Assembly: GCF_000013665.1 (NCBI RefSeq)
Contig: NC_007912.1
Span: 4,399,684 to 4,463,683 of the forward strand
Direction of reading: 5' to 3'
Source of the DNA: Saccharophagus degradans 2-40
GTDB lineage: Bacteria > Pseudomonadota > Gammaproteobacteria > Pseudomonadales > Cellvibrionaceae
DNA: 64,000 nucleotides
The notes below the pieces were generated by a model. That model did not search any database. It saw only the letters and a program-made list of their open reading frames with translations, and was not told where the DNA came from. Shown here piece after piece: positions 34,426 to 52,264 of this stretch (the stretch's first letter is position 1; each line of letters opens with the position of its first letter). A program made the position numbers and the translations under genes.

Positions 34426-34436
34426 GATGCTCTCCT

Positions 34437-35466: not shown

Positions 35467-36648
35467 ATGCTTTCACTACCGCGCAATGTCTGGGTGCTAG
35501 CCTGCACCATATCGTTAACAATGGCTGGAATTTCGCTGCTAATGCTGGTTGGCGGGCTTATTGGTGCCGAGCTTGCGCCCAGCCCAAGCTTGGCCACGCT
35601 GCCCATTGCCGCTTTTGTGGTTGGCATGGCTGCCAGCACTATTCCCGCCACCATGATTCTGAAGCGCTTTGGCAGAAAGGCCGGCACCTATTTTGGTTTT
35701 TCTGCCACCGTACTCGCTGCGCTGTGCGCAATAACGGCCGTGAACAGTCACAATTTTTGGCTTATGGTGTGCTGCGGCTTACTTATCGGCACGGGCACAG
35801 CGTTTTATCAGCAGTTTCGTTTTGCCGCTATAGAAAGCCTATCCGACCCAAGCAATACCGGCCCCGCACTTTCGGCACTTATGCTTTTTAATATTGTGGG
35901 CGCATTAATAGGGCCAGAATTAGGCACGCTCGGCCGCCACATGCTTAGCGGCTATGCAGAGTACACCGGCTCGTTCTTATTATTAATTGGCCTTATTGTA
36001 TTGGCGATGCTGATATTTAGCCTGTTTAACAACCCCATTGCTTCAGCAACAAACACAACATCTAGCGCCCGTCCGCTCAAAGACATTGTTCGCCAACCCC
36101 TGTTTATTATTGCGTTAATTTCCGCAGGTTTTGGTTATGGCTTAATGAGCTTTTTAATGACCTCTACACCGCTTAGCATGCATACCCATCACGGTTACAG
36201 CTTGGCCGATGCTAAATGGGTAATACAAAGTCATTTAGTGGCCATGTTTTTACCCAGTTTATTTTCCGGCTTTTTACTTAAGAAGCTGGGCGAAGGCAAA
36301 GTTATGCTACTGGGCGGAATACTCTACGGTGTGGTTATTCTTGTTGCGTTTGCGGGGCAGGCGTTGATGCATTATTGGTGGGCACTGGTTTTACTTGGTG
36401 TAGGGTGGAATTTTTTATTTTTAAGCGGCACAAGCTTACTACCCAAAACCTATAAGCACGAAGAACGCTTTAAGGCGCAAGCGGTAAACGACTTTATTGT
36501 GTTTACCGTGCAAGCAACTGCCGCACTAAGTGCCGCCTGGGTGCTGTTTGAGTTTGGCTGGCACACGCAAGTGACAATAGGTATTCCACTTACTGTGGTT
36601 ATAATTATTGGCGCTACGGTATTAATAAGGCAACCAAAGAATACATAG
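35467..36648 (+). CDS. MFS transporter (12 TM)
   Basis: Hydrophobic periodicity. An MFS-type motif GRKAGTYFG follows TM2. Its start may lie upstream. The overlapping ORFs 35373-35891 and 35406-35687 are rejected. Confidence 0.75.
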   Translation: MLSLPRNVWVLACTISLTMAGISLLMLVGGLIGAELAPSPSLATLPIAAFVVGMAASTIPATMILKRFGRKAGTYFGFSATVLAALCAITAVNSHNFWLMVCCGLLIGTGTAFYQQFRFAAIESLSDPSNTGPALSALMLFNIVGALIGPELGTLGRHMLSGYAEYTGSFLLLIGLIVLAMLIFSLFNNPIASATNTTSSARPLKDIVRQPLFIIALISAGFGYGLMSFLMTSTPLSMHTHHGYSLADAKWVIQSHLVAMFLPSLFSGFLLKKLGEGKVMLLGGILYGVVILVAFAGQALMHYWWALVLLGVGWNFLFLSGTSLLPKTYKHEERFKAQAVNDFIVFTVQATAALSAAWVLFEFGWHTQVTIGIPLTVVIIIGATVLIRQPKNT

Positions 36649-36657
36649 CACAAGCAA

Positions 36658-37209
36658 CTAGGTGTTAAGCTCTACAATGCTTGTTGATAAGCCATCTATC
36701 GTTGCCTGGTTTTTTTTCGCCCAATATTTCTTTAGGCCTTCGTCACCTTGCTTCACGGCCCAATCCCTAAGCAATTCGCGCTCGCCCACATATTCGAAAT
36801 AAGGTACAGCCATACCGCAAGATGTTTGCAGCATTTCTACCTGCATATCAAATATTTGTCTGGCTCCGGCAATCGGCTCGAATTTGCTGTATAACTCGCT
36901 CCATTCACTGTCGTTTTTATGAATAACTTTTGCTGTACCATATAAACGCATAATAACGGGCTTGCCCTCAAACGCAGAAAACATAACTGTCATACGCGGG
37001 CAACGCTGCACATGGGCTGCAGTTTCATTTCCGCTACCCGTTACGTTTAGCCAAATTACCCTATTGCCACCCAACACCCGAAAGCTATCCATGCCTTTGG
37101 GCGAGATGTTTACGCGGCTGTCTTCGGTGGCCGTACCTACAAAAAATATTTTTTGCGCTTCAATGAATGTTTTATGCTTTTCTAGAATTTCTTGATATTG
37201 CTGTCCCAT
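36658..37209 (-). CDS. Pyridoxamine 5'-phosphate oxidase-like FMN-binding protein (general stress protein 26 family)
   Basis: The translation …FFVGTATEDSRVNISPKGMDSFRVLGGNRVIWLNVTGSGNETAAHVQRCPRMTVMF… is the PNPOx split-barrel pattern. Confidence 0.7.
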   Translation of the reverse strand: MGQQYQEILEKHKTFIEAQKIFFVGTATEDSRVNISPKGMDSFRVLGGNRVIWLNVTGSGNETAAHVQRCPRMTVMFSAFEGKPVIMRLYGTAKVIHKNDSEWSELYSKFEPIAGARQIFDMQVEMLQTSCGMAVPYFEYVGERELLRDWAVKQGDEGLKKYWAKKNQATIDGLSTSIVELNT

Positions 37210-37334
37210 AAATACACCGTAGCTTTTTAGCCAAAACTTTTATTGCATGAACAATGTTTTATGCCGTAATGAGTATCGGTTGACGCAACCAAAACTTTTG
37301 CGCAAGAGCGGCCACCAAATACTAGAACAGTGGC

Positions 37335-37958
37335 TTAATAAGCAGCCACTGGATCTATACGTACACCATTGCCCACTAACTTTAACATTGGCAGGTCACT
37401 ATCGTCGTCGCCAAACGCCCAGCTAGCCGCCAAGTCTATATTATTGTCTAGCGCATAGCGCAGTATACGTGTGCGCTTGGTTTCGCCAATACAGGGGCTG
37501 CCGACAACCTCCCCCGTGTAAACACCATTAATCGTCTCTGGCGTAGTATGTAGCGCGGCATCGATATTAAAGCGTTTAATTAACGGGCGTAAAAGTGGAG
37601 CAAACGAACCTGTTACCAACACAATTCGGTAGCCTTCCGCTTGTAAGCGCTTAATTTCGGCCACTGTAGAGGCGATATAAAAATCGCCAGACTGCTCCAT
37701 TTCTGCGTACCACTTCTCTGCAGCTTTTTCGACTTCCGCTTGCGATACGCCTTTGAATATTGAGAAATAATGACGATTAAGATCCGCTCGAGCTTCATCG
37801 GTGCTTAATTTAGCATATAAACGTTTTAGAAAAAGTGACAATGCAGTCACTTTAATGGTATCGGAAGTATTTAGCTCGAGGTACCGCGCAAAACTCACCA
37901 TACTTTTTGTAGAAATAATGGTGCCATCCACATCGAAAAAAGCTGCTTTATTACCCAT
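37335..37958 (-). CDS. HAD-superfamily hydrolase, subfamily IB (phosphoserine-phosphatase-like)
   Basis: Motif I is FFDVDGTI. Motif II is VLVTGS. Motif IV is GDDDSDLPML. Confidence 0.8.
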   Translation of the reverse strand: MGNKAAFFDVDGTIISTKSMVSFARYLELNTSDTIKVTALSLFLKRLYAKLSTDEARADLNRHYFSIFKGVSQAEVEKAAEKWYAEMEQSGDFYIASTVAEIKRLQAEGYRIVLVTGSFAPLLRPLIKRFNIDAALHTTPETINGVYTGEVVGSPCIGETKRTRILRYALDNNIDLAASWAFGDDDSDLPMLKLVGNGVRIDPVAAY

Positions 37959-38832
37959 TTACATGCACCTCTTGTGACTCTTGTGATGAGGCAACCGCTG
38001 GCTTCGATACATTAGCGCTAGTAACGTTCGCTATAAATTGACCTACAACCACTTCAAAAGCTGTGGGTAAATCCACCTGTATTGCATGCCCTGCACCGGG
38101 GAAAGTAATAACATCTGCTTTTATTTTGTCGTCATTTAACAAGGTATCGTAGTAAGCGCTGTTAAGAAAACGATCGAATTCGCCTTTTAGCATTAAACAA
38201 GGTAGATCACTTTGTTTTAGCAATGCCACTTCATCCAATACCTTGCCCGCACCTAAGCCAGCACCAAGCTGCTCACGAAACTGAGGGTGGGTTGACTCAA
38301 TTAATGTAACTAGCTCTTGTAGCTTATCGATTGACCCTGTTTGCACAAAGGCTTTGCCAAAGCGAGCGCACTCTTGCTCACTCAATTCACCTTTAAACAG
38401 CAAACCATCGGTTGGGTCTGCTAAAAAGGCATCACCCAAGCGAGACAATGCGATAGGTGGCGAAGACACAAGCACCAATCCAGCCGCATTAGAATGCGCT
38501 GGTAGCGACTCCAATAAAGCATGACCACCAAGACTTTGACCAATAAGCACATACTTATCAAAGCCAAAGCTATTTACTACATCAACGGTAAACTCGCCAA
38601 GCTGCTCAATAGTAACTTCAGTAACATCTTCGCGGTAGTAAGCAGATTCACCGTGCCCAGGAAAACTAACCGCGATAAGCCTGTAGGTATCTCCCACTTC
38701 GGATTGCAACAAATCGACATATGCGCTTGCTCCACTTGAGTTACCGTGAAAAATAAACACAGGTGTACCCACGCCGCGCGATTCAATAATTTCTGTGCGA
38801 ATTCCGTTTATTTCTTTGACATACTTATTCAT
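37951..38832 (-). CDS. Alpha/beta hydrolase
   Basis: FIFHGNSSG, GQSLGG (GxSxG), and a C-terminal GAGHAIQ. Confidence 0.75.
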   Translation of the reverse strand: MNKYVKEINGIRTEIIESRGVGTPVFIFHGNSSGASAYVDLLQSEVGDTYRLIAVSFPGHGESAYYREDVTEVTIEQLGEFTVDVVNSFGFDKYVLIGQSLGGHALLESLPAHSNAAGLVLVSSPPIALSRLGDAFLADPTDGLLFKGELSEQECARFGKAFVQTGSIDKLQELVTLIESTHPQFREQLGAGLGAGKVLDEVALLKQSDLPCLMLKGEFDRFLNSAYYDTLLNDDKIKADVITFPGAGHAIQVDLPTAFEVVVGQFIANVTSANVSKPAVASSQESQEVHVNG

Positions 38833-40498
38833 ACATTGCCACCTGTTTTGTTTGGTTACCTATGTTTTTAATTTTCAAACCGCTTATGACTTGCTCACCT
38901 ATAGCCTTTACATCGCTCAGCTTTCTAACCGCGAGGGTGATTCCATCTGGACGAACCACCTGCACCCATTCAGGGCTGGGTGTCTCTGCCTCTAAAAATG
39001 CAGGCAGGCGTAAAAACCGTTGCGGCATGTTAGTTTGCAATTGCACAACAGCGGATCCAGCTGCCTCTTTTTTGCCCCCACTCACAAACCAAACCTGCGC
39101 ACCACTCATACCGTTTAAGGCACTAAACAGCGCCTGTACTCGCAGGCGTAGCTGTGGGTTACTCAACGCGTACTGATTAACAATAAATACCGGCCCAGCT
39201 AACGGGAACACGTCACCATTAGAGGGGGTTAACTTATTAGTGGCATGCAACACGACTGGATTTAATTTTCCCTCTGCCGCGAATACGTTTTGCTCGCTCA
39301 CATCCACCCCCGTATGGGTCGCATTCACTGCATCTAACGTTAACTGCATAGCTAACCCCGAGTGAGCGCTAGGCAACACCTTCTTAAGAAAGGTGCGATT
39401 TACAAAACGTGGTGCTATTAATTGTATTAATCGACTGGTGTTATCTGGTTTACAAATTAGCTGGGTGGAAGTATCAGAGCTAGCTGCTGCCTCCTGAATT
39501 GCAGGTAACCGCTCCAATTGATAAGTATCGAGTAGCTGCGCATCCGACTGCCCGGTAATAACCGCAGCCAATTTCCAACCAAGATTAAAGGCATCTTGCA
39601 TTCCGGTATTCATACCGGTACCGCCTATAGGGCTGAAAAGGTGCGCGGCATCGCCCGCTAAAAAGCATCTATTTTTATGTATGTTTTGCGCAACCCGGTT
39701 ATAAAATGGTGCGCGCGATATCCAAGCTGGGGCCCCCAGCTTAAATCGCTTGCCAAAATATCTAGCCAGTACGGCATTCATATCTTCTACACTTGGCGGC
39801 TCATCGGGCACAGCACCAGAGAACTTAACCACTACCCGCCAGCGCCCTTTAGCAATTGGCACAAGAATAAAAAAAGTATCGGGGTACACAAAATATTGCA
39901 CTTCGTGTTTACCAAATGGGAAATCAATATCGAAATCCCCTAGGGTAAAATGCATGTCGTAGTCGAAACCATCAAAGGCAATATCTAAATGCTTACGCAC
40001 AACACTGTGTTTGCCATCACACCCCACCACATAATCATAGTGCTGCGTTTGCAATTCACCTGCTGGCGATTCGATTTCAACACTTACACCACTAGCGGTG
40101 TCTGTAATGTTTGCAACTCTGTGGCACCACTTTACGCGCACATCCACGTGTAATAGCGCGCTAATCAATTCAGTTTCGGTAACCGCTTGCGGCTGGGTTA
40201 CAAGGGACTGGATAGCCCCCCGTACATGCGCGAAATTAACCGAGCTATAGCGCGCATTTTGCCAGTGCAAATTTAAACGCGAGATTGACATGCCCCGCTC
40301 GCCAACTGGGGTACGGACGCCAATAAGCTTCAGCCCGTACTGACTACTTACGTTCAGGGCAAGGCCTTTACTATCGGAAGTAGGCCCAGCTTTTCTGTCG
40401 ACAATATCAAACGCTACTCCTCGGCGAGCCAGATCGTTAGCCAACGTTAACCCCGTAGGACCGGCACCAACAATTAACACCTTGCGCTGAACATTCAT
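38825..40498 (-). CDS. Class A FAD-dependent monooxygenase (aromatic-ring hydroxylase-like, with a C-terminal thioredoxin-like/dimerisation domain)
   Basis: The translation MNVQRKVLIVGAGPTGLTLANDLARRGV has the GxGxxG motif. The DG and GD motifs are in GDAAHLFSPIGGTGMNTGMQDAFNLGWKLA. Confidence 0.85.
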   Translation of the reverse strand: MNVQRKVLIVGAGPTGLTLANDLARRGVAFDIVDRKAGPTSDSKGLALNVSSQYGLKLIGVRTPVGERGMSISRLNLHWQNARYSSVNFAHVRGAIQSLVTQPQAVTETELISALLHVDVRVKWCHRVANITDTASGVSVEIESPAGELQTQHYDYVVGCDGKHSVVRKHLDIAFDGFDYDMHFTLGDFDIDFPFGKHEVQYFVYPDTFFILVPIAKGRWRVVVKFSGAVPDEPPSVEDMNAVLARYFGKRFKLGAPAWISRAPFYNRVAQNIHKNRCFLAGDAAHLFSPIGGTGMNTGMQDAFNLGWKLAAVITGQSDAQLLDTYQLERLPAIQEAAASSDTSTQLICKPDNTSRLIQLIAPRFVNRTFLKKVLPSAHSGLAMQLTLDAVNATHTGVDVSEQNVFAAEGKLNPVVLHATNKLTPSNGDVFPLAGPVFIVNQYALSNPQLRLRVQALFSALNGMSGAQVWFVSGGKKEAAGSAVVQLQTNMPQRFLRLPAFLEAETPSPEWVQVVRPDGITLAVRKLSDVKAIGEQVISGLKIKNIGNQTKQVAMYE

Positions 40499-40509
40499 AG
40501 CTACACCAC

Positions 40510-41265
40510 CTAAGCAATATCGAGCCGCTGCTCTAGCGCTTCATCTACTCTGCGACAAAGCTCTTTCACAGCTGTTTGCGATTTTTTACTTTCTATTTTG
40601 TTTAGCAAGCGCGAGTTACACAGGGTTACATCTAAGCTAATGCTGCCAATATCCACTCCGCACTGAATGACGGTAGAAGTTACCACCACAGTGATACTTT
40701 TGGCCGATACCTTTAGCTCTTTAATAACCGTGTTAAGTGAAGCAGGGAGCGGAAACAAGTAGCCGTCGAAGCGTGAATCAAACCGATCTAACACCAAGCC
40801 AAAAGACTCGCTAGAATTGCGACAGTATTCGTATTCTAATACTGCAATTGTTGCCTGACGCGCAGCTTCCATTAGCAACATTGCACCTACATGTTGGCCG
40901 GTTACGTGGTCGGACAATCTATCTATTTTGTCGGTTAAACTTAAATCGAACGCATAATTAAGCTTACCTAAACGTCGCGGTTCGGTAATAAGCACATTTT
41001 CTTCCGCGTGCTTATGGGTATCCGCCAACGTAGCAACCGGAGAGAAAGAATACACTTTATCTACGCTTCTATTTTTCAAGGAAGTTTCAATAAATTCTCT
41101 GTCTGTATAGCCAATACCTTGGCCAAATATAAAACTCGCGTTTTCTCCCGGCCAGGTTTTATCGTCTACCATTTCTTTATACAACTCAGAAACGGTAAAT
41201 ACATTTGGTTGTTGAGAAAACTTAGCGTAATCATCCCCAACAATTACATAGTAGTTCGCATTCAT
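40510..41265 (-). CDS. AfsA-like (A-factor biosynthesis hotdog) protein, a putative butenolide/gamma-butyrolactone-type signal synthase
   Basis: The translation ...DHVTGQHVGAMLLMEAARQATIAVLE matches the AfsA repeat signature H-x-P/G-G-M-x-L-x-E-A-x-R-Q. A second hotdog-like half is present. The call is from motif memory, not a database search. Confidence 0.55.
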   Translation of the reverse strand: MNANYYVIVGDDYAKFSQQPNVFTVSELYKEMVDDKTWPGENASFIFGQGIGYTDREFIETSLKNRSVDKVYSFSPVATLADTHKHAEENVLITEPRRLGKLNYAFDLSLTDKIDRLSDHVTGQHVGAMLLMEAARQATIAVLEYEYCRNSSESFGLVLDRFDSRFDGYLFPLPASLNTVIKELKVSAKSITVVVTSTVIQCGVDIGSISLDVTLCNSRLLNKIESKKSQTAVKELCRRVDEALEQRLDIA

Positions 41266-41319: not shown

Positions 41320-42414
41320 TTAGTTAATATCAAGAGCAAAGGTTTTGGCCATATGCTCGCAATAGTCCATAGATGTATTCATACGTAACATAGAACCGAA
41401 GAATACTTCCTCGCGCGCTTCTACCGATTGCGCAACTGTCGGGCGTATTGCGTTCGTCAACCAGCCATTACCGTGGCGCGCATCAATAGAAATGTGAGTT
41501 TGGTGATACTCTGACGCTTCATCGGATAAACCTAAACGTTTGAAACCGCGTACTAAGTGAGAAAATCGGAAGGGCGAGATAATTTCTACGGTACCCAATG
41601 CACCCAAGCCAATATTTAAGTTCTTGCGGTGTAGTACGGAATAAAGCAATGTATTACCACAAGCCAACGCCTGCCACGAAGCACGCTCGAGTACATCTGC
41701 AAACGTTTCTCCGTCACGATAAATATCTAGCTCGCTGTACAATCGAGAGAACAATTCTGTGTGTACATCCTCTGGAACGCCGTTACCCATTTCATCCCAA
41801 AAGTTACTTGCCAACTCCATTTTGATACCGGGGGTTTTAATACCCACTTGCATCAATGCGATCAAGTCGTCGAAACGCGGGTCAATCGTTACCTCTTGCG
41901 AAAAGAAGTAAGACATTTCTTCTTTTTTACTTTCGTCGGCAAGGTACTGAAACAGAGGATGATTTGAGGAAGGGTGCTTAAGCACATACTGCTTCAACCA
42001 CTTACTAAAGGCTTTAGGCTCTGTAGGAATATCTTCTTGTGGCATACGTTTTTTCTCAAACGCTAACCATGCCGATTCGAGCTTAGCCATCACTTCCATT
42101 AACGTGGGGTCATACTGCGGCGCTTTTGCAAACGCGTTAATTTGATAATCGTAAATAGTGTTTAGTGACTTGTGCAGCTCGAAAGCCATATCTGGGTTGG
42201 CAGGGCCTTCGAAGCGCTCTACCACTACCTTAAGAAGCTGGTCTAAATGCTCTTTTTCTGCTGGATTATTTTGCAATGAATCAAAAGGGTTAGGTCTATC
42301 TAGCAATTGCATAATGGCATGCGAAAGCGTTTGACTGTCTTCCAAGGTAATATTGATTTCTACACTTGGGTCTAAGCTGTCAACCAACGATGGTGATAAT
42401 TCTTCAATGTTCAT
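41320..42414 (-). CDS. Heme-oxygenase-like diiron oxidase/oxygenase family protein (iron-containing redox enzyme family; CADD/PqqC fold)
   Basis: The translation ...ASNFWDEMGNGVPEDVHTELFSRL... and ...HISIDARHGNGWL... shows E-x-x-H metal-ligand pairs typical of the Haem_oxygenas_2 family. Confidence 0.55.
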   Translation of the reverse strand: MNIEELSPSLVDSLDPSVEINITLEDSQTLSHAIMQLLDRPNPFDSLQNNPAEKEHLDQLLKVVVERFEGPANPDMAFELHKSLNTIYDYQINAFAKAPQYDPTLMEVMAKLESAWLAFEKKRMPQEDIPTEPKAFSKWLKQYVLKHPSSNHPLFQYLADESKKEEMSYFFSQEVTIDPRFDDLIALMQVGIKTPGIKMELASNFWDEMGNGVPEDVHTELFSRLYSELDIYRDGETFADVLERASWQALACGNTLLYSVLHRKNLNIGLGALGTVEIISPFRFSHLVRGFKRLGLSDEASEYHQTHISIDARHGNGWLTNAIRPTVAQSVEAREEVFFGSMLRMNTSMDYCEHMAKTFALDIN

Positions 42415-42489: not shown

Positions 42490-43488
42490 TTAGGCGGATG
42501 ACTTTTCAAGTATTTTTTGCGGGTAGCGCGAGCCGACAACAGCATCTGGCGAGAAAATAGTATTAAGCTCTTCGACTACGTTCGGTTCTAACGAAAGTAA
42601 TCTTGAGTCAAAATTATTTTGTAAGTACTTGGGGGTTTTGGAACCAGGGATAATATGAACGTTAGGTGCTTTAGCTAGAACCCACGCCAGCGCCACTTGC
42701 GATACTGGCGCCTGCAATCGCTCGGCAACGCCTTTTAGCTTTTCCACCAACTGCATATTGGAATCAATATTGTCTTCGCTAAAACGAGGCAAGCGCTTTC
42801 TAAAATCTAGGTCGTCACTTACGCCCGCCATAAAGCTTTTATCTATGCTACCGCTTAAAAAGCCGCGCCCTAAGGGACTAAATGCTACGAATGCCACACC
42901 AAGCTCAACACAAAGAGGCAATACACCTAGCTCGGAATCACGCGACCAAAGCGATAATTCACTTTGCACTGCAGCCACAGGGTGAATTTGATGTGCTTTT
43001 GCAAGTTGATCTTCCGACACTTCACACAGGCCAATATTTTTAATCTTTCCTTCTTTTACAAGCGCTTTAAGCGTGCCAATGCTTTCTTCCAACTCTATTG
43101 CTGGGTCCAAGCGGTGTAGGTAGTAAAGGTCAATATATTCAGTATTCAATCGCTTTAAAGATGCTTCACATGCAGCGCGAATGTATTGTTCGGTGCTGTT
43201 AACCGATACGTTATATTTATCATTCACATCTCTAACAATACCGCCCTTAGTACTGATAAATAGCTCTTCACGGTTAATATTTTCTTGGTTTATAAACTTG
43301 CCAACCAATGTTTCGTTGTGGCCGAACCCGTACATGTCTGCTGTATCGAAATGTCGGTAACCTAGGTTGAAGGCTTCATTCAATGTTTGTAATGAGGTTG
43401 CTTCGTCCGCCGCGCCGTAAAATTCGCTCATACCCATGCAGCCTAAACCCACCGCTGGGACTTCTCTGTTACCCAATAATCTAAACAT
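42490..43488 (-). CDS. Aldo/keto reductase (Tas/YghZ-like)
   Basis: The translation LGCMGMSEFYGAADEATSLQTLNEAFNLGYRHFDTADMYGFGHNE has the catalytic D/Y/K/H tetrad context. Confidence 0.85.
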   Translation of the reverse strand: MFRLLGNREVPAVGLGCMGMSEFYGAADEATSLQTLNEAFNLGYRHFDTADMYGFGHNETLVGKFINQENINREELFISTKGGIVRDVNDKYNVSVNSTEQYIRAACEASLKRLNTEYIDLYYLHRLDPAIELEESIGTLKALVKEGKIKNIGLCEVSEDQLAKAHQIHPVAAVQSELSLWSRDSELGVLPLCVELGVAFVAFSPLGRGFLSGSIDKSFMAGVSDDLDFRKRLPRFSEDNIDSNMQLVEKLKGVAERLQAPVSQVALAWVLAKAPNVHIIPGSKTPKYLQNNFDSRLLSLEPNVVEELNTIFSPDAVVGSRYPQKILEKSSA

Positions 43489-44936: not shown

Positions 44937-46544
44937 TTAAGCAACTTGCTGCTGTTTTTTAAGTGAAATAAAAGCAGAGATAATTAGCATCGCTATAAAT
45001 CCTACTGTTATAAGTTGAAATAAGTTCATATAGGTTATCGAGAGCACTTGCTCGGTTACCCTACCATTTAGTGCGCGGTAAGCTTTTTCCAGCGCGTGCA
45101 ACTGGCTACTTGTTTCAGAGTAATAAAACTCAACAACACCACCAAAGCGCTTATATAAAACAGTGCTAGATAAAGTCACGTTGTGGCGAAGCAGCTCCCA
45201 TGTGCGCAGCTCGTAATGGGTTATCAAGCTGGCAAACACCGCAATACCAAGTGTGCTGCCCAATAAGCGGGTGGTAGATTCCAAAGCAGCAGCAGCTGGC
45301 ATGGTTGCCTTGGGAATACTGATAAGCGCAGCAGTGGTAACCGGCCCCAAAATAAAGGCTGCCCCTAAGCCCTGAATGATTTGCGGCAAAATCATATCGT
45401 GCCAACCGGTTTCGAAAGTAAAGCCGGCCATCATCACCCCACTACCAATCCCTAATACCAACCCAGTTGTAATAAGCAGGCGCATGGGAACACGATTAAA
45501 TAGCCACCCCACAAGGGGAAAAGCCAACATCATTACCAACGCTCGCGGCGCCATGGTGGTGCCCGCTTGTGTTGGCGAAAAACCTAGCAGCTCTTGCATG
45601 TAAATAGGCAAAACGAACAGCGTGCCAGTAATCATGAAAGCAGCGAGAAAGTTCAAGCTGTTCGCCGCAGTAAAGGTTTTATGCTTCAGCACTTTGAGGT
45701 CTAGAAGAGGTTGCTTGATGGTAAGGGAGTGGGCACAAAGCATTGCCCAAGAAGCGAGTGCAACCACAAGTAGTACTACATTTTGAGTATCTTCAAACCA
45801 GTAGGTGCGATCGCCACGCTCAAGCAACCACACGGTACCCACAACGCCAAATAGCAGCCATAAAATACCTGGGGCATCGAATGTGCGCTTAGGGGTGTCT
45901 GCACCGATTGGATCATCGATCAAATAATGCCTAACCATTACAAAGCTGATAATGCCAATAGGAATATTCACGATAAATATAAAGTGCCAGCTGAACTGAT
46001 CGATAAGAATACCGCCCAACATGGGGCCAAATGCTGGGCCACACATAATGGACGTACCGTAAAGCCCCATAACCAGGCCGTGCTGCACCGGCGGGAAGGT
46101 TCTGCGCAAAATCACGCCTTCCACCGGCAGAAGAATACCTGCTCCCAAACCTTGAATAACGCGATATAAAATTAATTGCTCCAGAGACGTCGCCATAGCA
46201 CACAGCGCTGAGCCGATAACAAACAACACCAAACCCGCTTGGTATACCCGCTTACTACCTAGGCGATCTACAAACCAGCCAGATAAAAACATGCACATCA
46301 TAGATGCGATCGCGTAGCTGGTGCTTACCCAGCTAACCTCAGCCACAGTGGCTGAAAATACTCCGCGAAGGTTTGGCGTAGCCACATAAAGGATAAAAGT
46401 GTCGAGCGATGACATAACTCCGCCCATCGAAACCGATAGCGCTACTGCCCACTTGTTATGAGTACTTTCCACTTGAATACAACCTAAATTAGCCTGCGAC
46501 ATTGAAACCAAGCAATCAACCCGCTTGGCAATATATACAGCCAC
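44937..46544 (-). CDS. MFS drug:H+ antiporter, DHA2 family (EmrB-like, 14 TM)
   Basis: The translation …LDTFILYVATPNLRGVF…, 14 hydrophobic segments, and EmrB-like length. The real start is probably an internal Met. Confidence 0.8.
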   Translation of the reverse strand: MAVYIAKRVDCLVSMSQANLGCIQVESTHNKWAVALSVSMGGVMSSLDTFILYVATPNLRGVFSATVAEVSWVSTSYAIASMMCMFLSGWFVDRLGSKRVYQAGLVLFVIGSALCAMATSLEQLILYRVIQGLGAGILLPVEGVILRRTFPPVQHGLVMGLYGTSIMCGPAFGPMLGGILIDQFSWHFIFIVNIPIGIISFVMVRHYLIDDPIGADTPKRTFDAPGILWLLFGVVGTVWLLERGDRTYWFEDTQNVVLLVVALASWAMLCAHSLTIKQPLLDLKVLKHKTFTAANSLNFLAAFMITGTLFVLPIYMQELLGFSPTQAGTTMAPRALVMMLAFPLVGWLFNRVPMRLLITTGLVLGIGSGVMMAGFTFETGWHDMILPQIIQGLGAAFILGPVTTAALISIPKATMPAAAALESTTRLLGSTLGIAVFASLITHYELRTWELLRHNVTLSSTVLYKRFGGVVEFYYSETSSQLHALEKAYRALNGRVTEQVLSITYMNLFQLITVGFIAMLIISAFISLKKQQQVA

Positions 46545-46742
46545 CAGTTGCAGTAAAAATAGCGGCTATACGTTAACGCCACGCATAGTACTCAAGCCAC
46601 CTAGCCTTTCTAACCTGTCACATTTGACACAAGCCAAAAATTTACACGCTATCCACGCTCACGCTAACATGATCGAAAAGTAGGAAATGAAATTATTTTC
46701 TAAATACAAACACCACGTAGACATCTTGTCAGGCAGGAATTT

Positions 46743-48062
46743 ATGTCCGTAAGCAACAAATCAAACACTGTAATTCGAGCCCTTGGTTCGATTGAAACTC
46801 GCATGGCGCTATTTCATGGAAACTTAAATGGCTCAACTCAGGGCACACAAACCATCGATTTCGAAGCCGACATAGATGCGTCTACTTTTTACGAAGCTGT
46901 GAACGCGCTTTACAAAAAGTATGTTCCCCTGCGCTGCACAATAAAGCGTGAAGAAAACGAACTATACTTTTACCGCGATGCCGATTTAAACCGAATAGAC
47001 GTTAACTATATTGAGGTTAATACCATTCAAGAGAAGGACAAGATTGTACGTCTCGCCTTAGATGACAAAATAGAAGCCAGTATTAGCCTGTGGAAAATAA
47101 GTTTGGTTAAGTTAAAGGACCAAGCAAGCTATACGCTTATATTTTCTGCACATCACGCAATAATTGACGCGAATGGCATGCACCACATTGCGCAATCTTT
47201 CTTCGATTTTATTGCCAGTAAAATTACAGGCATCCATTACTTCGACGATACAGAAGTAGATTTACCGCTAGCAGTTGATGCACTACTAAGGGAACAAACC
47301 TTTGCCCCCAAAACAGAACACACCATCGCTAGAGATTTTGATACAGCGTGCCCATTAGAAAGCAGAAGCACCCACTGGCAACAACTAAAGCTAGACACTG
47401 TTTTTATGGGTAAGCTAAATACACAGCTAGCGAAAGACAATATTAAATTCCACTCTATTGTGTCGGCCGCTATGTGTATAGCCATGCAAAAAACACAATT
47501 TATTCAAACACCTTTCCCTTTCGGTACAGCCGTTAGCCTACGGTTTTTGCAAGATTCGCAACCCAGCTATTTCAACCCGCTTGGTTGTTATATGTCTATT
47601 GCATCGAATTTAATTGAAGGTAGTGAACTGGATGTAACGCAGCTTGCCATTAAATACGACCGCGCATTGATGCACAAAATAATGACAACCTGCCTAACCA
47701 AGAGCCCGATAGATATTAACCAAGTAGATGCCGGCACCAAACAAATAGCAACGCTACATTCTTTTGCACAAGGGGTAGGCATTACCAATATGGGCGATAT
47801 AAATATCCGCTCGCCCCACCCAAGTGTATTACTGACGGATTACACAATGCTCGCAAATCGCGTGGCAGGCAACTTCTCTATTGTTGCGCACTGCTACGCA
47901 TTTAATAACGTCCAAACAGTTTCGCTGGTGTACCCACACCCCATACTTGCCGGCGAGCACGTAAAAGAAGTAGTAAACGAAATGCGACTACTACTAGAAG
48001 ACTATTGCGCGCAAGCAAATACCAACAACAGCCTACACAATACACCAACAGTACCAGCCTAG
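46743..48062 (+). CDS. Free-standing condensation-domain protein (NRPS C-domain / CoA-dependent acyltransferase superfamily)
   Basis: The catalytic HHxxxDG motif is FSAHHAIIDANGMHH. The protein is 439 aa, the size of one C domain. Confidence 0.65.
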   Translation: MSVSNKSNTVIRALGSIETRMALFHGNLNGSTQGTQTIDFEADIDASTFYEAVNALYKKYVPLRCTIKREENELYFYRDADLNRIDVNYIEVNTIQEKDKIVRLALDDKIEASISLWKISLVKLKDQASYTLIFSAHHAIIDANGMHHIAQSFFDFIASKITGIHYFDDTEVDLPLAVDALLREQTFAPKTEHTIARDFDTACPLESRSTHWQQLKLDTVFMGKLNTQLAKDNIKFHSIVSAAMCIAMQKTQFIQTPFPFGTAVSLRFLQDSQPSYFNPLGCYMSIASNLIEGSELDVTQLAIKYDRALMHKIMTTCLTKSPIDINQVDAGTKQIATLHSFAQGVGITNMGDINIRSPHPSVLLTDYTMLANRVAGNFSIVAHCYAFNNVQTVSLVYPHPILAGEHVKEVVNEMRLLLEDYCAQANTNNSLHNTPTVPA

Positions 48063-48107
48063 CTGTTAGCCAATTTCACCCCAACATAATCATCACAAGG
48101 AAATACA

Positions 48108-48371
48108 ATGACCAATTTAACCATCACACAAATTGAAGAAAAGCTATGCGCGATTATTGCCGACGTTAAGCGTATTGCAAGTAACGACGTTAGCTTAAAT
48201 GCAAACGACGATTTTATTAATAAATACCACCTTACCAGCATGGATGCCGTTTCACTAAGCGTGCGCATCAGCGAAGATTTTGGGTTTGGGTTTGGCCAAG
48301 AAGCAGAAGATATTGACGGCCTGGCTTCATTTGGATCTTTAACACAACTTATTCAAAAGCGAGTAGCGTAA
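48108..48371 (+). CDS. Acyl/peptidyl carrier protein
   Basis: The phosphopantetheine-attachment site is YHLTSMDAVSLSV (a DSL-like Ser). The protein is 87 aa and acidic. Confidence 0.7.
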   Translation: MTNLTITQIEEKLCAIIADVKRIASNDVSLNANDDFINKYHLTSMDAVSLSVRISEDFGFGFGQEAEDIDGLASFGSLTQLIQKRVA

Positions 48372-48373
48372 CC

Positions 48374-49945
48374 ATGCAAACACTGGCCCAACGCATTATT
48401 CACTGGGCCGCAGTACAGCCAGAAAAACTGGCTGTAGACGACGGCACCCAAGCGATAACCTATAAAGAATTAGCGCATCAAGCAGGCTCTCTCGCGGCAC
48501 GTTTGCAAAGCAACGGCGTGACTAGCGGCGACCGCGTAGTACTTCTTTTACCCAAAAGCACAACTGCAGTATGCGCTATTATAGCTGTGCTCTCGCTGGG
48601 TGCTGCGTATATTCCAGCAGACCCAGATGCGCCCAAGCAGCGCTTGCAAAGCATTGTAGATGACAGCGAACCCAAAGCGATTATTTGCAGCAACCATACC
48701 GCTGATTGGTTTAATACCCTGTGCACTATAAATATTGACGCGAGTATTGATGCTTTTACTGACAACGCACAAGCGCACTTAACCTCGCTTGAAGGTAATG
48801 CAGAGCACGACGCCTATATACTTTATACTTCTGGGTCTACAGGTGTACCTAACGGCGTACGCATTAGCCATCGCGCTATGTTGGCATTTTTCCAAGCAGT
48901 TAACACCTACATGGGGGTTAATCAACAATCGCGCTGCATGAATACATCTGCACTGTATTTTGATGTCTCTATCGCAGATTTACTTTTGCCCCTTTACATG
49001 GGCGCCTCCGTTTGGCTAGGACCTACTGTACCTTTACCGTTTAGATTTATAGGCTTAATAACCAACCAGAAAATAACTCACTTTTGCGCCGTGGGCTCAA
49101 CACTTACCATGCTGGCCGCGCTGCCAAATTTCGACAAAAATAACTGGCCACACTTACAAACCATTATGACCGGTGCCGAGGTATTAAACCCCAACACCAT
49201 TAACGCCTGGCTAAATTGCAGCCCTAACGCTACCGTTTTAAATGGCTACGGCCCCACCGAAACCACCTGTGTTTGCACGCTGTTTCAAATAAATCACGAA
49301 AATATTCACCAGTACTCGAGCTTCCCTATAGGTGTACCACTGCCATTAGTGGATGCCATTATTGAAATAAATAGTGATAAAAATAGTGATGAAAAAAGCG
49401 ATGAACCTGGTATAGGTGAACTGTGCATTGGCGGCCCACAAGTAATGAATGGTTACCTTAATCGAGAGCTTTTAAATGACGCTCGACTTACGCGAATTAA
49501 CCACGCCACATATTACCGCACCGGCGACAAAGTGCGCCGCGACCACAATGGTAATTTAATATTTTTGGGCCGAATAGATGATCAGGTAAAAGTAAATAGT
49601 TATCGCGTGGACCTAGGCGATATAGCTGAACCCTTTCGCAGCCAAAGTATTGTTCAAGATGCCGTTGCGCTGGTAGTTAAGCACACTACTTATGGCGAGT
49701 GCCTTGCTGTGGTTGTTAAAACACGTAACGAAGGCGAAAACCTAGAAAGCTTGCTAAACCAAGCAGCACAGGCCCTACCGCACTATATGCGCCCTGCGCT
49801 TATTGCCAGCATAGACGCAATGCCGTTAAGCCCCAGCGGTAAAGTTAACGCTAAAAAAGTGCGCGCATTGGCTAACCAACACTTTCTAGAATGCAACGAA
49901 CGCTATAGCCATATTTCAGCTCACATAGAGGAGCACGCCCTATGA
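48374..49945 (+). CDS. Adenylate-forming enzyme (NRPS adenylation domain / ANL superfamily), stand-alone
   Basis: Core A3 is YILYTSGSTGVPNGV. A5 is NGYGPTE. A7/A8 is YRTGDKVRRDHNGNLIFLGRIDDQVKVNSYRV. A10 is PSGKVNAKK. It is translationally coupled to the carrier protein gene (3-bp gap). Confidence 0.85.
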   Translation: MQTLAQRIIHWAAVQPEKLAVDDGTQAITYKELAHQAGSLAARLQSNGVTSGDRVVLLLPKSTTAVCAIIAVLSLGAAYIPADPDAPKQRLQSIVDDSEPKAIICSNHTADWFNTLCTINIDASIDAFTDNAQAHLTSLEGNAEHDAYILYTSGSTGVPNGVRISHRAMLAFFQAVNTYMGVNQQSRCMNTSALYFDVSIADLLLPLYMGASVWLGPTVPLPFRFIGLITNQKITHFCAVGSTLTMLAALPNFDKNNWPHLQTIMTGAEVLNPNTINAWLNCSPNATVLNGYGPTETTCVCTLFQINHENIHQYSSFPIGVPLPLVDAIIEINSDKNSDEKSDEPGIGELCIGGPQVMNGYLNRELLNDARLTRINHATYYRTGDKVRRDHNGNLIFLGRIDDQVKVNSYRVDLGDIAEPFRSQSIVQDAVALVVKHTTYGECLAVVVKTRNEGENLESLLNQAAQALPHYMRPALIASIDAMPLSPSGKVNAKKVRALANQHFLECNERYSHISAHIEEHAL

Positions 49946-51162
49946 GCAAAACAGCGGATGTGGCAGCACCCTCACAACAGATGCATGCACAGCAAAAAGA
50001 GGCAAGTAACACGGATTTGCTGAGCGAGTTTCTTAACCTATGCGATCAGAATAAGGCTAACACTTACGATATCGATTTTTTTAAAACGGTATTTAAGCTC
50101 TGCAGGCCCGAAACAACGTCTGAGTTTAGCTATTACGCCGAGCTTGAAGAGCATATCGCCTATATAGAGTCGTTTGCGGCCAGCGAGCTTATTTCCAACC
50201 AGCTAAATTTTGTTGCACCGCTCTTAGAGCTAACGGCAACAATGGGTAACCCACATAGCTCACTTAATCCACACAACTCACATAACCCACATAACCCACA
50301 TAGCAACACGGTAAACTCAAAACTAGCTCAACAGCTACTTAGCAGTATTCGCCAAGGCGATATGCTTTTTAGTCGCGTTTTAACTATTCCTGAGCAAGCA
50401 AAAAACTCTACGCAAGCGCCGTTTGGTGTAAGCGCTAGCGAGAATAAAAATGGCTGGCTGCTGAATGGGGCGTTAAGCGTCGTACTATTTAATAAGGCCG
50501 TTAGCCACCATTTAGTGCTCGCCACACTGCCCAATAACAATACATTAGTTACCTACCTGCCGACTCAAACCGCGGGTATTACAACCGCAGAGCACGCACA
50601 ACTTGGTGCCCCCAAAGCAAACAACTCCCAATTTGAAATAGCTAACCTCAGATTACAAAACGTATTGGTAAACAATGGTGCAATTGGCGAGATAAATACA
50701 CAGTCTATTTTGGACCTTGTTGCGCGCAGCCGAATAATGACTGCCATACGCCACAATCAATACACGCGAATGTGTTTAGACAAGTTAATTTTATTTTTAA
50801 AGTCACGCATTTCTAACGGTGACCCGCTAATTAATCAGCAGGTTATTCAACATAGATTAGCAAAACTTGAGGCTCGATTAAGTAGTAGCTGCGCGCTTAG
50901 TCGCTATAGTTTACAACAGATGGCGGCAGGCAAAGATACCCAAGCGCTTGCCAGTGCATGTAAATTGCTCGCTAGCGAGTTACTTGTGTACGCATCGAAA
51001 CAAGCACTTCATTTAGGTGGTATTACCCACTTCCAAAAAAATAAGCCAATAGCGAATAGTTACACAGAAGCCAATTGGGCTAATTTTTTCCTAGAGCCTA
51101 AGGACTTGTTACTTCGCAACATTCTAGACACAAGCGTTTCTGAGCGCCACCAAAAGGCTTAG
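49942..51162 (+). CDS. Acyl-CoA-dehydrogenase-like protein (divergent; contains a (NPH)n low-complexity insert)
   Basis: The C-terminal helical domain has the ACAD pattern (…QQVIQHRLAKLEARL…) and the middle domain …NGWLLNGALS…. Its start overlaps the adenylation gene stop (ATGA). Confidence 0.5.
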   Translation: MSKTADVAAPSQQMHAQQKEASNTDLLSEFLNLCDQNKANTYDIDFFKTVFKLCRPETTSEFSYYAELEEHIAYIESFAASELISNQLNFVAPLLELTATMGNPHSSLNPHNSHNPHNPHSNTVNSKLAQQLLSSIRQGDMLFSRVLTIPEQAKNSTQAPFGVSASENKNGWLLNGALSVVLFNKAVSHHLVLATLPNNNTLVTYLPTQTAGITTAEHAQLGAPKANNSQFEIANLRLQNVLVNNGAIGEINTQSILDLVARSRIMTAIRHNQYTRMCLDKLILFLKSRISNGDPLINQQVIQHRLAKLEARLSSSCALSRYSLQQMAAGKDTQALASACKLLASELLVYASKQALHLGGITHFQKNKPIANSYTEANWANFFLEPKDLLLRNILDTSVSERHQKA

Positions 51163-51166
51163 CCAT

Positions 51167-52264
51167 ATGAAAATACAAGACCACGCATTCGCAGCCGATT
51201 TACAAAATTGGATTAACGAGCACCTTTCGCCTTACACACCTACAAGTAAAGCCGAAAAACTTGTGTCTATTCACTCGCTGGTACGGGAGCTAGCGCAGAG
51301 CAATTTACTTACCCGCGGCTGGCCGGCCCCCTACGGCGACAACGATATACGCAAACAATTGTACCTACATTTTTCGCTCGCACGCCAAGCTCTCGGCGCT
51401 GTGGGCTTATGCTTGGCCTCACACATAGACATTGGTACGCGCGGCTTGCTAGATAAAGGCTCGCCTGAGCTAATTGATAAATGGTTGCCAAAAGCATTAA
51501 CCGGTGACGCTATTTTTTCTCTCGCGATGACAGAACCAGATGCCGGAAGCGATTTACAGGGCATTCAATTTACCGCCAATAAAAGTGAAGAGGGCTGGAT
51601 ACTAAACGGGGTAAAACGCGGTATTACCAACTTGCCTTTTGCCGACGCAGCCCTTGTACTTGCACGCACCAACCCCAGCCGCAGCCCATTTAGCTATTCT
51701 TTATTTCTAGTGCCCATTGAAACGGCCGGCATTACCCGCGAGCAAGCAGTGCCCACATTGGCCTATCACGGCTGCCTAGGAGGAATAAGCGCAAAAGATG
51801 CCGTTATTCCCCTCGACAACCTCGTTGGGCCATTTGGCGCAGGACTTATGTTATTAATGAAGCACTTAGAAACCGAGCGGCTATTTGTAAGTGCACGCAT
51901 GCTAGGCATAAGCACTTATTTAATTGAAGAATTAATACTGCACACTCGCAATTCCCCACAATGCGCATTGCAAGCCGATAATGTCGCGAGGTTAAAAATG
52001 CAACTAATGGCTTTTGAAGCCTATTTTGAAACTTGTGTTAATGCATTTGAAGAAGGCGAACTTAGCGCAAAGGATTCTGCCGCGCTAAAATATATGGGCA
52101 GCAGCTTGCTAAAATCCGCTAGTAACACCCTAGCAGACTACAGCGGCGCGCAGGGTTATTTACGCGGCACCCCAGCAATTCGCTTTACAACAGAAGCAAT
52201 GGGGCTTGCACTGGCAGGCGGAAGCGAAGAAATAATGCTCTCAATAATTGGCAATACCCTTTAA
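51167..52264 (+). CDS. Acyl-CoA dehydrogenase family protein
   Basis: The translation …SLAMTEPDAGSDLQGIQFTANKSEEGWILNGVKRGITN… has the TEPxAGSD signature and W-x-L-N-G. Confidence 0.75.
   Translation: MKIQDHAFAADLQNWINEHLSPYTPTSKAEKLVSIHSLVRELAQSNLLTRGWPAPYGDNDIRKQLYLHFSLARQALGAVGLCLASHIDIGTRGLLDKGSPELIDKWLPKALTGDAIFSLAMTEPDAGSDLQGIQFTANKSEEGWILNGVKRGITNLPFADAALVLARTNPSRSPFSYSLFLVPIETAGITREQAVPTLAYHGCLGGISAKDAVIPLDNLVGPFGAGLMLLMKHLETERLFVSARMLGISTYLIEELILHTRNSPQCALQADNVARLKMQLMAFEAYFETCVNAFEEGELSAKDSAALKYMGSSLLKSASNTLADYSGAQGYLRGTPAIRFTTEAMGLALAGGSEEIMLSIIGNTL

Follow-up and report, generated by a model that had tools for sequence, protein, structure and literature searches.

The window analysed here is a stretch of 64,000 nucleotides of the Saccharophagus degradans 2-40 genome (contig NC_007912.1, positions 4,399,684 to 4,463,683). 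At about 36658-58692 it carries a biosynthetic gene cluster that is a distant relative of the tundrenone (tun) cluster of Methylobacter, apparently with an amino acid replacing the chorismate-derived unit. The cluster is real and conserved. It does not form a category of its own but belongs to the tundrenone kind, to which it adds a module of an HrmI-like N-oxygenase, nonribosomal peptide synthetase (NRPS)-type loading and a pair of acyl-CoA dehydrogenase (ACAD)-like proteins. It is considered very probable that this is a quorum-controlled, tun-type cluster with an amino-acid partner module. The step-by-step biosynthetic scheme given below is tentative and held to be somewhat less likely than not, and for cluster type and scheme combined in one statement the probability is put at roughly 60%.

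Gene content and transcription units

Protein domains were called on the listed open reading frames (ORFs) by Pfam and NCBIfam profile searches. Every domain that an earlier note, written from the bare sequence, had named for this region was found where it had been placed. Its quoted motifs were present as well, HHAIIDANG in the condensation (C) protein and HVGAMLLMEAARQ in the AfsA protein. The biosynthetic and export genes are listed below, with percent identities to tun proteins as obtained by tblastn.

36658-37209, minus strand: PNPOx-like protein binding flavin mononucleotide (FMN), 183 aa; Pfam PNPOx_N, 9.3e-12; last gene of the aldo/keto reductase (AKR) operon
37335-37958, minus strand: HAD-IB hydrolase, 207 aa; TIGR01490, 134.1 bits against a cut-off of 98.3; 34% identity to the tun HAD
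37951-38832, minus strand: alpha/beta hydrolase, 293 aa; Pfam Abhydrolase_6; 28% identity to the tun hydrolase
38825-40498, minus strand: class A monooxygenase binding flavin adenine dinucleotide (FAD), 557 aa; Pfam FAD_binding_3, 8.3e-67; 39% identity to the tun enzyme
40510-41265, minus strand: AfsA-like hotdog enzyme, 251 aa; Pfam AfsA, 39 bits against a gathering cut-off of 24; 31% identity to the tun AfsA
41320-42414, minus strand: heme-oxygenase-like diiron enzyme (HDO), 364 aa; Pfam Haem_oxygenas_2, 1.1e-40
42490-43488, minus strand: AKR, 332 aa, first gene of the cassette operon; Pfam Aldo_ket_red, 2.5e-71; 47% identity to the tun AKR
43679-43700, minus strand: terminator-like hairpin, AAAGAGCGCTTTAGCGCTCTTT then TTTTT, 3' of emrA
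43724-44914, minus strand: EmrA-type periplasmic adaptor, 396 aa; TIGR00998, 7.9e-53; 37% identity to the tun adaptor
44937-46544, minus strand: EmrB/DHA2 exporter of the major facilitator superfamily (MFS), 535 aa; TIGR00711, 353.4 bits against a cut-off of 230.2; 46% identity to the tun MFS protein
46743-48062, plus strand: free-standing enzyme of the C-domain superfamily, 439 aa; Pfam Condensation, 4e-10; HHAIIDANG at residue 137
48108-48371, plus strand: carrier protein, 87 aa; Pfam PP-binding, 1.7e-05; attachment serine is residue 44 (LTSMDAV)
48374-49945, plus strand: stand-alone NRPS adenylation (A) enzyme, 523 aa; TIGR01733, 339.9 bits against a cut-off of 317.4
49942-51162, plus strand: ACAD-like protein 1 (ACAD1), 406 aa; C-terminal ACAD domain alone recognised by Pfam
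51167-52264, plus strand: ACAD-like protein 2 (ACAD2), 365 aa; all three ACAD domains recognised by Pfam

Together with the quorum-sensing genes described further below, these genes form four transcription units between about 36.6 and 58.7 kb: emrB-emrA; AKR-HDO-AfsA-monooxygenase-hydrolase-HAD-PNPOx; C-carrier-A-ACAD1-ACAD2, possibly followed by an EamA gene; and luxI with a 316-aa gene. The hairpin read from 43700 to 43679 after emrA splits the exporter operon from the cassette operon, which gives the count of four. Since the 316-aa gene overlaps the stop of luxI, the two are probably co-transcribed.

The call of a biosynthetic cluster with an NRPS-type loading module was borne out, as the A domain passes TIGR01733 and Asp235, Lys517, the carrier serine and the HHxxxD motif of the C protein are all present. 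The AfsA-type enzyme and a dedicated EmrAB exporter were found as described, and the genes are syntenic in relatives.

Relationship to the tundrenone cluster

The tun locus (L035) was reached through the FAD monooxygenase, whose best 120 matches in 5.8 billion proteins included a cluster of Methylobacter tundripaludum proteins. Among these 120 matches, the named and context-checked ones all came from AfsA-cassette loci, that of M. tundripaludum included. In tblastn against this locus nine proteins of the window have homologues: the HAD, hydrolase, monooxygenase, AfsA, AKR, EmrA and EmrB proteins at the identities listed above, LuxI at 35% and the C protein at 23%. With nine such homologues and a nearly identical list of gene types, the statement of the earlier note that the gene set matched no named pathway does not hold.

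For M. tundripaludum 21/22, the published expression table lists the tun genes as LuxI-like, HAD-IB, ALAD-like, AfsA-domain, UbiH-like FAD hydroxylase, predicted oxidoreductase, DHA2 MFS, membrane-fusion protein, acyl carrier protein, condensation-domain protein, long-chain acyl-CoA synthetase, alpha/beta hydrolase, outer-membrane protein, quinone reductase, anthranilate synthase I and II, glutathione S-transferase (GST), DUF4902 and LuxR (PMC6977074). Both clusters thus hold an AfsA-like enzyme, a class A FAD monooxygenase, an AKR, a HAD-IB protein, an alpha/beta hydrolase, a C-like enzyme with HHxxxD, a small carrier protein, an adenylating enzyme, an EmrAB-type exporter and adjacent LuxI and LuxR proteins. 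Boxes of the type ACCTGTCA-N4-TGACAGGT lie 5' of luxI and of a biosynthetic operon in both.

The differences between the two are as clear. No homologue of anthranilate synthase I or II, no ALAD-like protein and no GST was found among the scanned ORFs of the window, and the outer-membrane factor and quinone reductase of tun are missing from it as well. The tun cluster, in turn, is without an HrmI-like HDO, an ACAD pair and a PNPOx-like protein. Its adenylating enzyme lacks Asp235 and is not of the amino-acid type, whereas the S. degradans enzyme passes TIGR01733. The gene order differs, and so do the hosts, a marine polysaccharide degrader and a methanotroph. In tundrenone biosynthesis, anthranilate-synthase-like, ALAD-like and GST enzymes reportedly supply the fragment derived from chorismate. 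As the genes for these are missing, a product other than tundrenone is expected.

In Methylobacter the tun genes are induced by an acyl-homoserine lactone, and the transcription of other genes is altered in a tun mutant, the metabolite itself altering gene expression (PMC6977074). Tundrenone was described as unique to Methylobacter so far (PMC6977074), and the complete cluster was confirmed in only 3 M. tundripaludum strains among 97 Methylobacter genomes and metagenome-assembled genomes (MAGs) (PMC12810054).

Conservation of the Saccharophagus-type cluster

A protein identical to this AfsA was found on 21 assembled contigs, beside the same neighbouring genes. Beyond these, gene content and gene order are shared by four further sources, with protein identities of 45-72%: Marinifaba aquimaris SM1970 (L007/L010), a Cellvibrio MAG (L014), Teredinibacter sp. 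KSP-S5-2 (L036) and a JGI metagenome contig (L008). The flanks of these loci differ, with glmS, glmU and the atp operon in L008, a sulfate transporter and a two-component system in L036, and PspA, DUF2170 and DUF3686 in the window. A conserved gene set in differing neighbourhoods indicates that the unit behaves as a self-contained cassette, and judged by this synteny the gene grouping is a conserved cluster and not a product of chance. The earlier note had named a lack of synteny in relatives as a finding that would speak against a cluster; the order proved to be kept.

The interior of the Marinifaba cluster holds luxI, luxR, a short-chain dehydrogenase/reductase (SDR) gene, a flavodoxin and a phosphopantetheinyl transferase. 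Orthologues of the PNPOx-like protein with 67-70% identity occupy the same position in L008 and the Cellvibrio MAG, and the gene is also present in Teredinibacter, while in Marinifaba the flavodoxin takes its position. A RidA-family gene beside the Marinifaba ACADs would fit an imine or enamine intermediate. The module specific to this branch consists of the HrmI-like HDO, the amino-acid adenylation domain, the ACAD pair and the small FMN protein.

Wider family of the eight-gene core

The genes shared with tun include an eight-gene core of AfsA, FAD monooxygenase, alpha/beta hydrolase, HAD, AKR, a C-like protein of about 430-440 aa, a carrier and an adenylating enzyme. The family was surveyed by an alignment-based AfsA scan of species-representative genomes, which yielded 25 loci (S. 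degradans and Methylobacter not among them), and by gene-context look-ups; a scan of the same genome set with the AfsA protein alone gave no match. Going by gene contexts, the core recurs in at least 10 proteobacterial loci besides tun, with differing accessory modules. The full core including carrier and adenylating enzyme was confirmed in three loci, those of Oxalobacteraceae bacterium BJB404, Gammaproteobacteria bacterium 42_54_T18 and Rivihabitans pingtungensis.

In BJB404 (L009/L011, about 650-9500) the cassette lies beside genes for a CarA-like protein (beta-lactam synthetase), two crotonase (CarB-like) proteins, a TauD/CarC-like protein, ArgJ, a carrier and a ligase; in these genes the shared platform may have a carbapenem-like partner module. 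The 42_54_T18 core is accompanied by PhyH, glyoxalase, ATP-grasp and alanine racemase genes, that of R. pingtungensis by a thiamine pyrophosphate-dependent enzyme, arginase, asparagine synthase and ArgJ. In one MAG each of Burkholderiales, Ramlibacter and Pseudomonadota the cassette and the C-like gene were seen by tblastn alone, and the Ramlibacter locus ends after the monooxygenase. The HHxxxD motif is kept in the C-like proteins of all 6 related loci aligned, tun included, the attachment serine aligns across the carriers of related loci, and a HAD-IB gene adjoins AfsA in nearly all of them.

This survey bears on the possibility that two independent neighbours were taken for one system, namely an AfsA/HAD/AKR cassette for a butenolide or gamma-butyrolactone-type signal and a small NRPS-like pathway, making two molecules. 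Minimal AfsA-HAD(-AKR) sets do stand alone in Endobugula, Ruegeria, Shimia and others, AfsA pathways alone make signals in Streptomyces and Pseudomonas (PMC7756379, PMC7154651), and in S. degradans the loading genes form an operon of their own, transcribed divergently from that of the cassette. Against this, the larger cassette is always accompanied by the C-like enzyme, the carrier and the adenylating enzyme, in distant hosts with different accessory genes, and the combined tun gene set was reported as one cluster linked to one product (PMC12810054, PMC6977074). Both S. degradans operons moreover have an intergenic region in common, in which one strong lux box lies. Two separate systems are accordingly held to be improbable, and a single cluster of the tundrenone kind is preferred.

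The AfsA cassette

AfsA-family enzymes join a 3-ketoacyl thioester with dihydroxyacetone phosphate or glyceraldehyde 3-phosphate to a phosphorylated acyl-butenolide, on which a phosphatase and a ketoreductase then act (PMC7756379, PMC7154651). By analogy, the AfsA-like enzyme of S. degradans is predicted to be a phosphorylated-butenolide synthase and the HAD-IB protein the phosphatase for its product. In such pathways an AfsA enzyme is paired with a phosphatase and a ketoreductase, a scheme into which the trio of AfsA, HAD-IB and AKR fits. The alpha/beta hydrolase gave weak sub-threshold matches to MenH, BioH and the enol-lactonase PcaD.

The same set of AfsA enzyme, phosphatase and ketoreductase is found, as SabA/SabP/SabD, among the AfsA butenolide pathways (A-factor, methylenomycin furans, SAB/SRB, the gladiostatin PBS domain, and styrolide/acaterin with StoB/AcaA; PMC7756379, PMC7154651). 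The S. degradans cassette differs from these in adding a class A monooxygenase and a hydrolase and in being always coupled to a C enzyme, a carrier and an adenylating enzyme; in the sto/aca clusters of Pseudomonas, an SDR and an NADH:flavin oxidoreductase are used instead (PMC7154651). The regulation also differs, being of the LuxI/LuxR kind: no TetR-family or ArpA-type receptor was matched among the ORFs scanned at 31-64 kb, and LuxR was the sole regulator found.

The loading and accessory module

The best solved structures matched by the A enzyme are NRPS A domains, and the equivalents of Asp235 and Lys517 are present. It is predicted from these residues and from TIGR01733 to be a true amino-acid adenylation domain, and not the fatty acyl-AMP ligase that the earlier note had considered as a counter-case. 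Its ten specificity positions were read by hand from motif anchors and an alignment to LgrA. The resulting code, DVACMGGCVK, is shared without change by the enzymes of S. degradans, Teredinibacter, Cellvibrio and L008, whose overall identity is just 58-59%. The tun ligase reads IVEVLGGMIK, without Asp235, and the 42_54_T18 enzyme DAFFIGATFK, which we take to be an Ile/Val-like code. The S. degradans pocket has Asp235 to hold the alpha-amino group, contains small residues and offers no acidic partner to a basic side chain; it thus suits a large neutral amino acid.

The C protein gave no sequence match to any solved structure, and its sole named relative is the O-acyltransferase PapA5, in a weak sub-threshold match.

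The HDO is best matched among solved structures by HrmI (3.2e-48, 34% identity over 279 residues), followed at a distance by PqqC-like structures (about 1e-06) and by BesC, the nearest other characterised HDO (8e-06). Residues E174, E208, H218, H307, D311 and H314 are conserved with HrmI and form a ligand-type set of three histidines and three carboxylates. Among the loci compared, the HDO gene is confined to the Saccharophagus-type branch. The enzyme is predicted to be an HrmI-like amine N-oxygenase, which narrows the earlier assignment, in which C-C cleavage had also been mentioned, to the N-oxygenating type. HrmI and BelK, of hormaomycin and belactosin biosynthesis, act on free L-lysine and turn its side-chain amine, via N6-hydroxylysine, into a nitro group, a six-electron N6-oxygenation that gives 6-nitronorleucine, and similar HDOs perform different chemistry (PMC13108848). 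The S. degradans HDO is likewise a heme-oxygenase-like diiron enzyme with the six positions kept; it differs in that no HrmJ/BelL-type iron/2-oxoglutarate-dependent cyclopropanase lies near it and in that its host is a gammaproteobacterium and not a Streptomyces.

The two ACAD-like proteins differ strongly from each other. ACAD2 retains TEPDAGSD and ETERL, the glutamate of the latter lying at what we take to be the position of the catalytic base in isovaleryl-CoA and long-chain acyl-CoA dehydrogenases. ACAD1 is without the TEPxAGSD motif and the ERL glutamate and has weak PDB matches. ACAD2 is consequently predicted to be the catalytic subunit and ACAD1 is probably a non-catalytic partner. In heteromeric alpha2beta2 acyl-CoA dehydrogenases (ChsE/FadE pairs of Mycobacterium), one subunit is catalytic. 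The S. degradans pair resembles these in its two adjacent ACAD genes, of which one alone keeps the FAD-binding and catalytic-base motifs, but the relationship is established at the level of the ACAD fold only, and the heteromer is putative. A His/Asn/Pro-rich low-complexity insert (NPHSSLNPHNSHNPHNPHSN) at about residues 100-122 of ACAD1 occurs in S. degradans only and not in the Marinifaba and L008 orthologues. A nitroalkane-oxidase-like role of the ACADs, with release of nitrite from a nitro amino acid, is speculation. For the PNPOx-like protein, its replacement by flavodoxin in Marinifaba suggests that it is a redox partner in electron transfer.

The A, carrier and ACAD genes had been compared in the earlier note with the trios PltF-PltL-PltE and AnaC-AnaD-AnaB, to which PigI-PigG-PigA may be added. 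In such a reading, a carrier-bound pyrrole or other dehydro-amino acid would be made from proline and transferred by the C domain to an acceptor. The architecture itself was upheld: the A domain is stand-alone, the A, carrier and ACAD-like genes are adjacent and translationally coupled, PltF-type and AnaB/PigA-type structures are among the PDB matches, the PigA and RedW models are among the NCBIfam matches of ACAD2, and ACAD2 is a plausible acyl- or aminoacyl-carrier dehydrogenase. A generic ACAD dehydrogenation of a tethered aminoacyl group is in fact also part of the scheme favoured here. What did not stand is the proline and pyrrole chemistry. The proline code is DVQLIAHVVK, with which DVACMGGCVK agrees at 4 of 10 positions. 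With the PigA and RedW models ACAD2 reaches 91.6 and 84.2 bits, far under their equivalog cut-offs of 500 and 650, and isovaleryl-CoA dehydrogenase is a better match (8.9e-33, against about 1e-23 for AnaB and PigA). Known trios use one ACAD, whereas S. degradans has two, one of them apparently non-catalytic. The HrmI-like oxygenase, a constant companion of the module, would furthermore be left unexplained. A proline-to-pyrrole trio is thus very improbable, and loading of a large neutral amino acid in a tun-type cluster is the reading carried forward.

Quorum-sensing genes and lux-type boxes

A LuxI/LuxR pair adjoins the biosynthetic genes, as had been noted earlier. It is accompanied by two genes of RibD fold.

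53295-54245, minus strand: RibD-fold protein, 316 aa; gene overlaps the luxI stop
54239-54814, minus strand: LuxI-family acyl-homoserine-lactone synthase, 191 aa; Pfam Autoind_synth, 4.8e-37; 35% identity to MbaI
55072-56010, plus strand: RibD-fold paralogue, 312 aa; gene between luxI and luxR
55990-56733, minus strand: LuxR-family autoinducer-binding regulator, 247 aa; Pfam Autoind_bind, 5.6e-36, and GerE, 9.5e-16

Binding sites were sought with a position matrix trained on eight boxes, all from other genomes, and about 64,000 positions of the window were ranked and compared with 100 shuffles. Five sites are of interest:

54940-54959: lux-type box, CACTGTAAGATATTACAGGT, score 22.2, rank 1, above 100 of 100 shuffles; between luxI and the RibD-fold gene
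46613-46632: lux-type box in the divergent promoter, ACCTGTCACATTTGACACAA, score 19.7, rank 2; 69 bp from the emrB start and 111 bp from the C-gene start
54875-54894: lux-type box, AGCTGTCACATAGAACAGAT, score 16.1, rank 3; 61 bp upstream of luxI
43570-43589: weak lux-box-like site, AGTTGGCATATGTTACAGGG, score 12.6; 82 bp upstream of the AKR start
57761-57780: weak lux-box-like site, score 13.3; upstream of an SDR gene

Over the shuffles the top site scored 13.3 on average and 18.7 at most, and no third-ranked site went above 13.7. L008, the Cellvibrio MAG and Teredinibacter carry similar boxes in the corresponding divergent intergenic region. In Marinifaba they were found upstream of the AKR operon, luxI and the SDR gene, the AKR-operon box being strong (L007, position 7718, score 20.0). 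The tun locus has two near-perfect palindromes, AACTGTCAACATTGACAGGT and ACCTGTCATTGTTGACAGTT, at 774-793 and 6625-6644 of L035, upstream of mbaI and of the first tun gene; these are candidate MbaR boxes of the same type as those of Saccharophagus. A generic inverted-repeat search of the window missed the lux boxes, and a simple degenerate pattern showed no enrichment over the window, with 7 matches where 4.9 were expected; of the three approaches the matrix alone gave a clear-cut test. Taken together, the boxes in biosynthetic promoters suggest that the cluster is probably quorum-regulated, in agreement with the earlier proposal.

The boxes also bear on whether the genes could form a catabolic or primary-metabolism island, for example for amino-acid or fatty-acid degradation with efflux. 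ACADs, AKRs, hydrolases, flavin monooxygenases and transporters are common in such islands, and ACAD2 resembles isovaleryl-CoA dehydrogenase. Apart from the quorum-sensing boxes, this origin is opposed by the biosynthetic hallmarks of the cluster (a carrier, an A domain passing TIGR01733, a C-superfamily enzyme and AfsA), by its patchy distribution in differing genomic contexts, and by the closest characterised relative, tun, which makes a secreted secondary metabolite (PMC6977074, PMC12810054). A catabolic island is the least credible of the alternatives and hardly to be expected; the evidence points to a biosynthetic cluster under quorum control.

The RibD-fold proteins of 316 and 312 aa are paralogues with 27% identity (9e-21), and neither has a Pfam or NCBIfam match. 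An AlphaFold (AF2) model of the 316-aa protein reached a predicted local distance difference test score (pLDDT) of 77 and a predicted template modelling score (pTM) of 0.77. Its top Foldseek matches were to the two-domain riboflavin enzyme RibD (deaminase plus reductase) over the full length (1.6e-14, TM 0.65). The zinc-binding deaminase motif appears to be gone. The family is rare, with 54 representatives among 1.84 billion proteins. One homologue lies between luxI and luxR in another locus (L039), beside an unrelated YcaO-type cluster, and another beside luxR in Marinifaba. In a 2012 survey, S. degradans 2-40 was listed with a gene intervening between luxI and luxR, its function unassigned (PMC3386692). 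This recurrent position suggests that the RibD-fold proteins are a new class of LuxI/LuxR-associated gene.

Proposed pathway and its weighing

According to the scheme proposed here, LuxR with its acyl-homoserine lactone would at high cell density bind the boxes at 46613 and 54875/54940, and perhaps the weaker ones at 43570 and 57761, and would switch on the exporter, cassette and loading operons as well as luxI. A beta-ketoacyl group supplied by fatty-acid synthesis would be moved by the AfsA-like enzyme onto a hydroxy-ketone phosphate of three carbons, and the product would cyclise to a phosphorylated acyl-butenolide. Once dephosphorylated by the HAD enzyme, this would be tailored by the AKR, the monooxygenase and the hydrolase, the latter two acting on the ring. 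In a parallel branch, the HDO would act as N-oxygenase on a primary amine, for which the side chain of free L-lysine is the simplest candidate. The neutral amino acid so formed would be picked by the uncharged, roomy A pocket and loaded onto the carrier. A heteromeric ACAD, with ACAD2 as catalytic subunit and ACAD1 as scaffold, may then dehydrogenate the tethered aminoacyl group, with the FMN protein as redox partner. The C-like enzyme would then attach the carrier-bound unit to the fragment derived from the butenolide, at a hydroxyl or an amine of the latter, and EmrAB would export the product.

Several points weigh against this reading. The product and the pathway steps are predicted from genes alone, and the comparison with tundrenone biosynthesis draws on gene lists. 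Identities to the tun proteins are low (23-47%), and no tblastn match was found in the tun locus for the A enzyme, the carrier, the HDO, both ACADs and the PNPOx-like protein, so that the chemistry may differ substantially. No ketosynthase was found in the cluster, and the source of the beta-ketoacyl donor is assumed. An identity of 34% to HrmI fixes neither the reaction of the HDO nor its substrate, and the A-domain code matches no code known to us. The role of the C-like enzyme, be it in ester, amide or other bond formation, is a guess from the sub-threshold PapA5 match. The weak sites at 43570 and 57761, lastly, fall inside the range of the shuffles.

A wider reading joins these results, and is considered rather unlikely in its full form. 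Tundrenone would be the sole characterised product of an unrecognised, widespread proteobacterial platform of AfsA with C, carrier and adenylating enzymes and exchangeable partner modules (chorismate-derived, carbapenem-like CarABC, branched-chain amino acid). In the branch made up of Saccharophagus, Teredinibacter, Cellvibrio and Marinifaba, a lysine-derived amino acid, N-oxygenated to a nitro or hydroxylamino form, would be the partner, and the RibD-fold proteins would separately form a new class of LuxI/LuxR-associated modulators. If true, marine polysaccharide degraders would possess, in the conjugate of this amino acid with a lipid derived from the acyl-butenolide, a second signal or antibiotic gated by quorum sensing.

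Through this comparison, an orphan cluster in a marine bacterium that serves as a model of polysaccharide degradation is tied to tundrenone, its only characterised relative. Literature on Saccharophagus, on its acyl-homoserine-lactone signalling and on HrmI with AfsA yielded no earlier description of the cluster or of the wider family. The family appears broad and modular, and its eight-gene signature could be mined by natural-product chemists, as rule-based detection tools may miss it: antiSMASH 5.0 gave no likely cluster for the AfsA-type pathway of styrolide (PMC7154651). For the Saccharophagus branch an unusual quorum-controlled mix is predicted, in which an aliphatic N-oxygenase would feed an NRPS-type loading module joined to an AfsA-derived unit. 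S. degradans is a genetically tractable host in which the function of tun-like metabolites could be studied.

Cluster boundaries and neighbouring genes

Three further genes bear on the extent of the cluster:

35467-36648, plus strand: MFS protein (Pfam and NCBIfam); outside the revised cluster
52295-53215, plus strand: EamA-family transporter, 306 aa; Pfam EamA, 4.3e-23; 31 bp 3' of ACAD2
57958-58692, plus strand: SDR oxidoreductase, 244 aa; Pfam adh_short; 63% identity to the SDR of the Marinifaba cluster

The cluster had earlier been delimited at 35467-52264. The gene grouping within these limits was retained and the edges were moved, to about 36658-58692. The MFS gene at 35467-36648 is without conservation in related loci and probably not a member, whereas the quorum-sensing genes and the SDR gene probably belong to the cluster. 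The membership of the EamA gene is uncertain; it is missing in Marinifaba, the sole relative whose locus reaches past ACAD2.

A leftward extension through the giant ORFs at 12910-21420 and 24967-30303 was considered and rejected, as neither is an NRPS or a polyketide synthase; they gave a low-complexity match and a DUF3686/AAA ATPase match, respectively. The first, on the minus strand, encodes 2836 aa, its sole match is to a low-complexity acidic repeat (Trypan_PARP, below the cut-off), and it may be a giant repetitive surface protein. The second opens a run on the minus strand at 24967-35072, directly upstream of the region, with a 1778-aa DUF3686/DUF7902/AAA ATPase, two ORFs of about 82 aa, proteins of 644 and 226 aa without annotation, PspA/IM30 and DUF2170. 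This run gives the impression of a module for membrane stress or of a defence-like kind that has no connection with the cluster. Further to the left, an IS110-family transposase gene lies at 2767-3975 on the plus strand, within a stretch of low GC content (about 35-41% at 2-6 kb).

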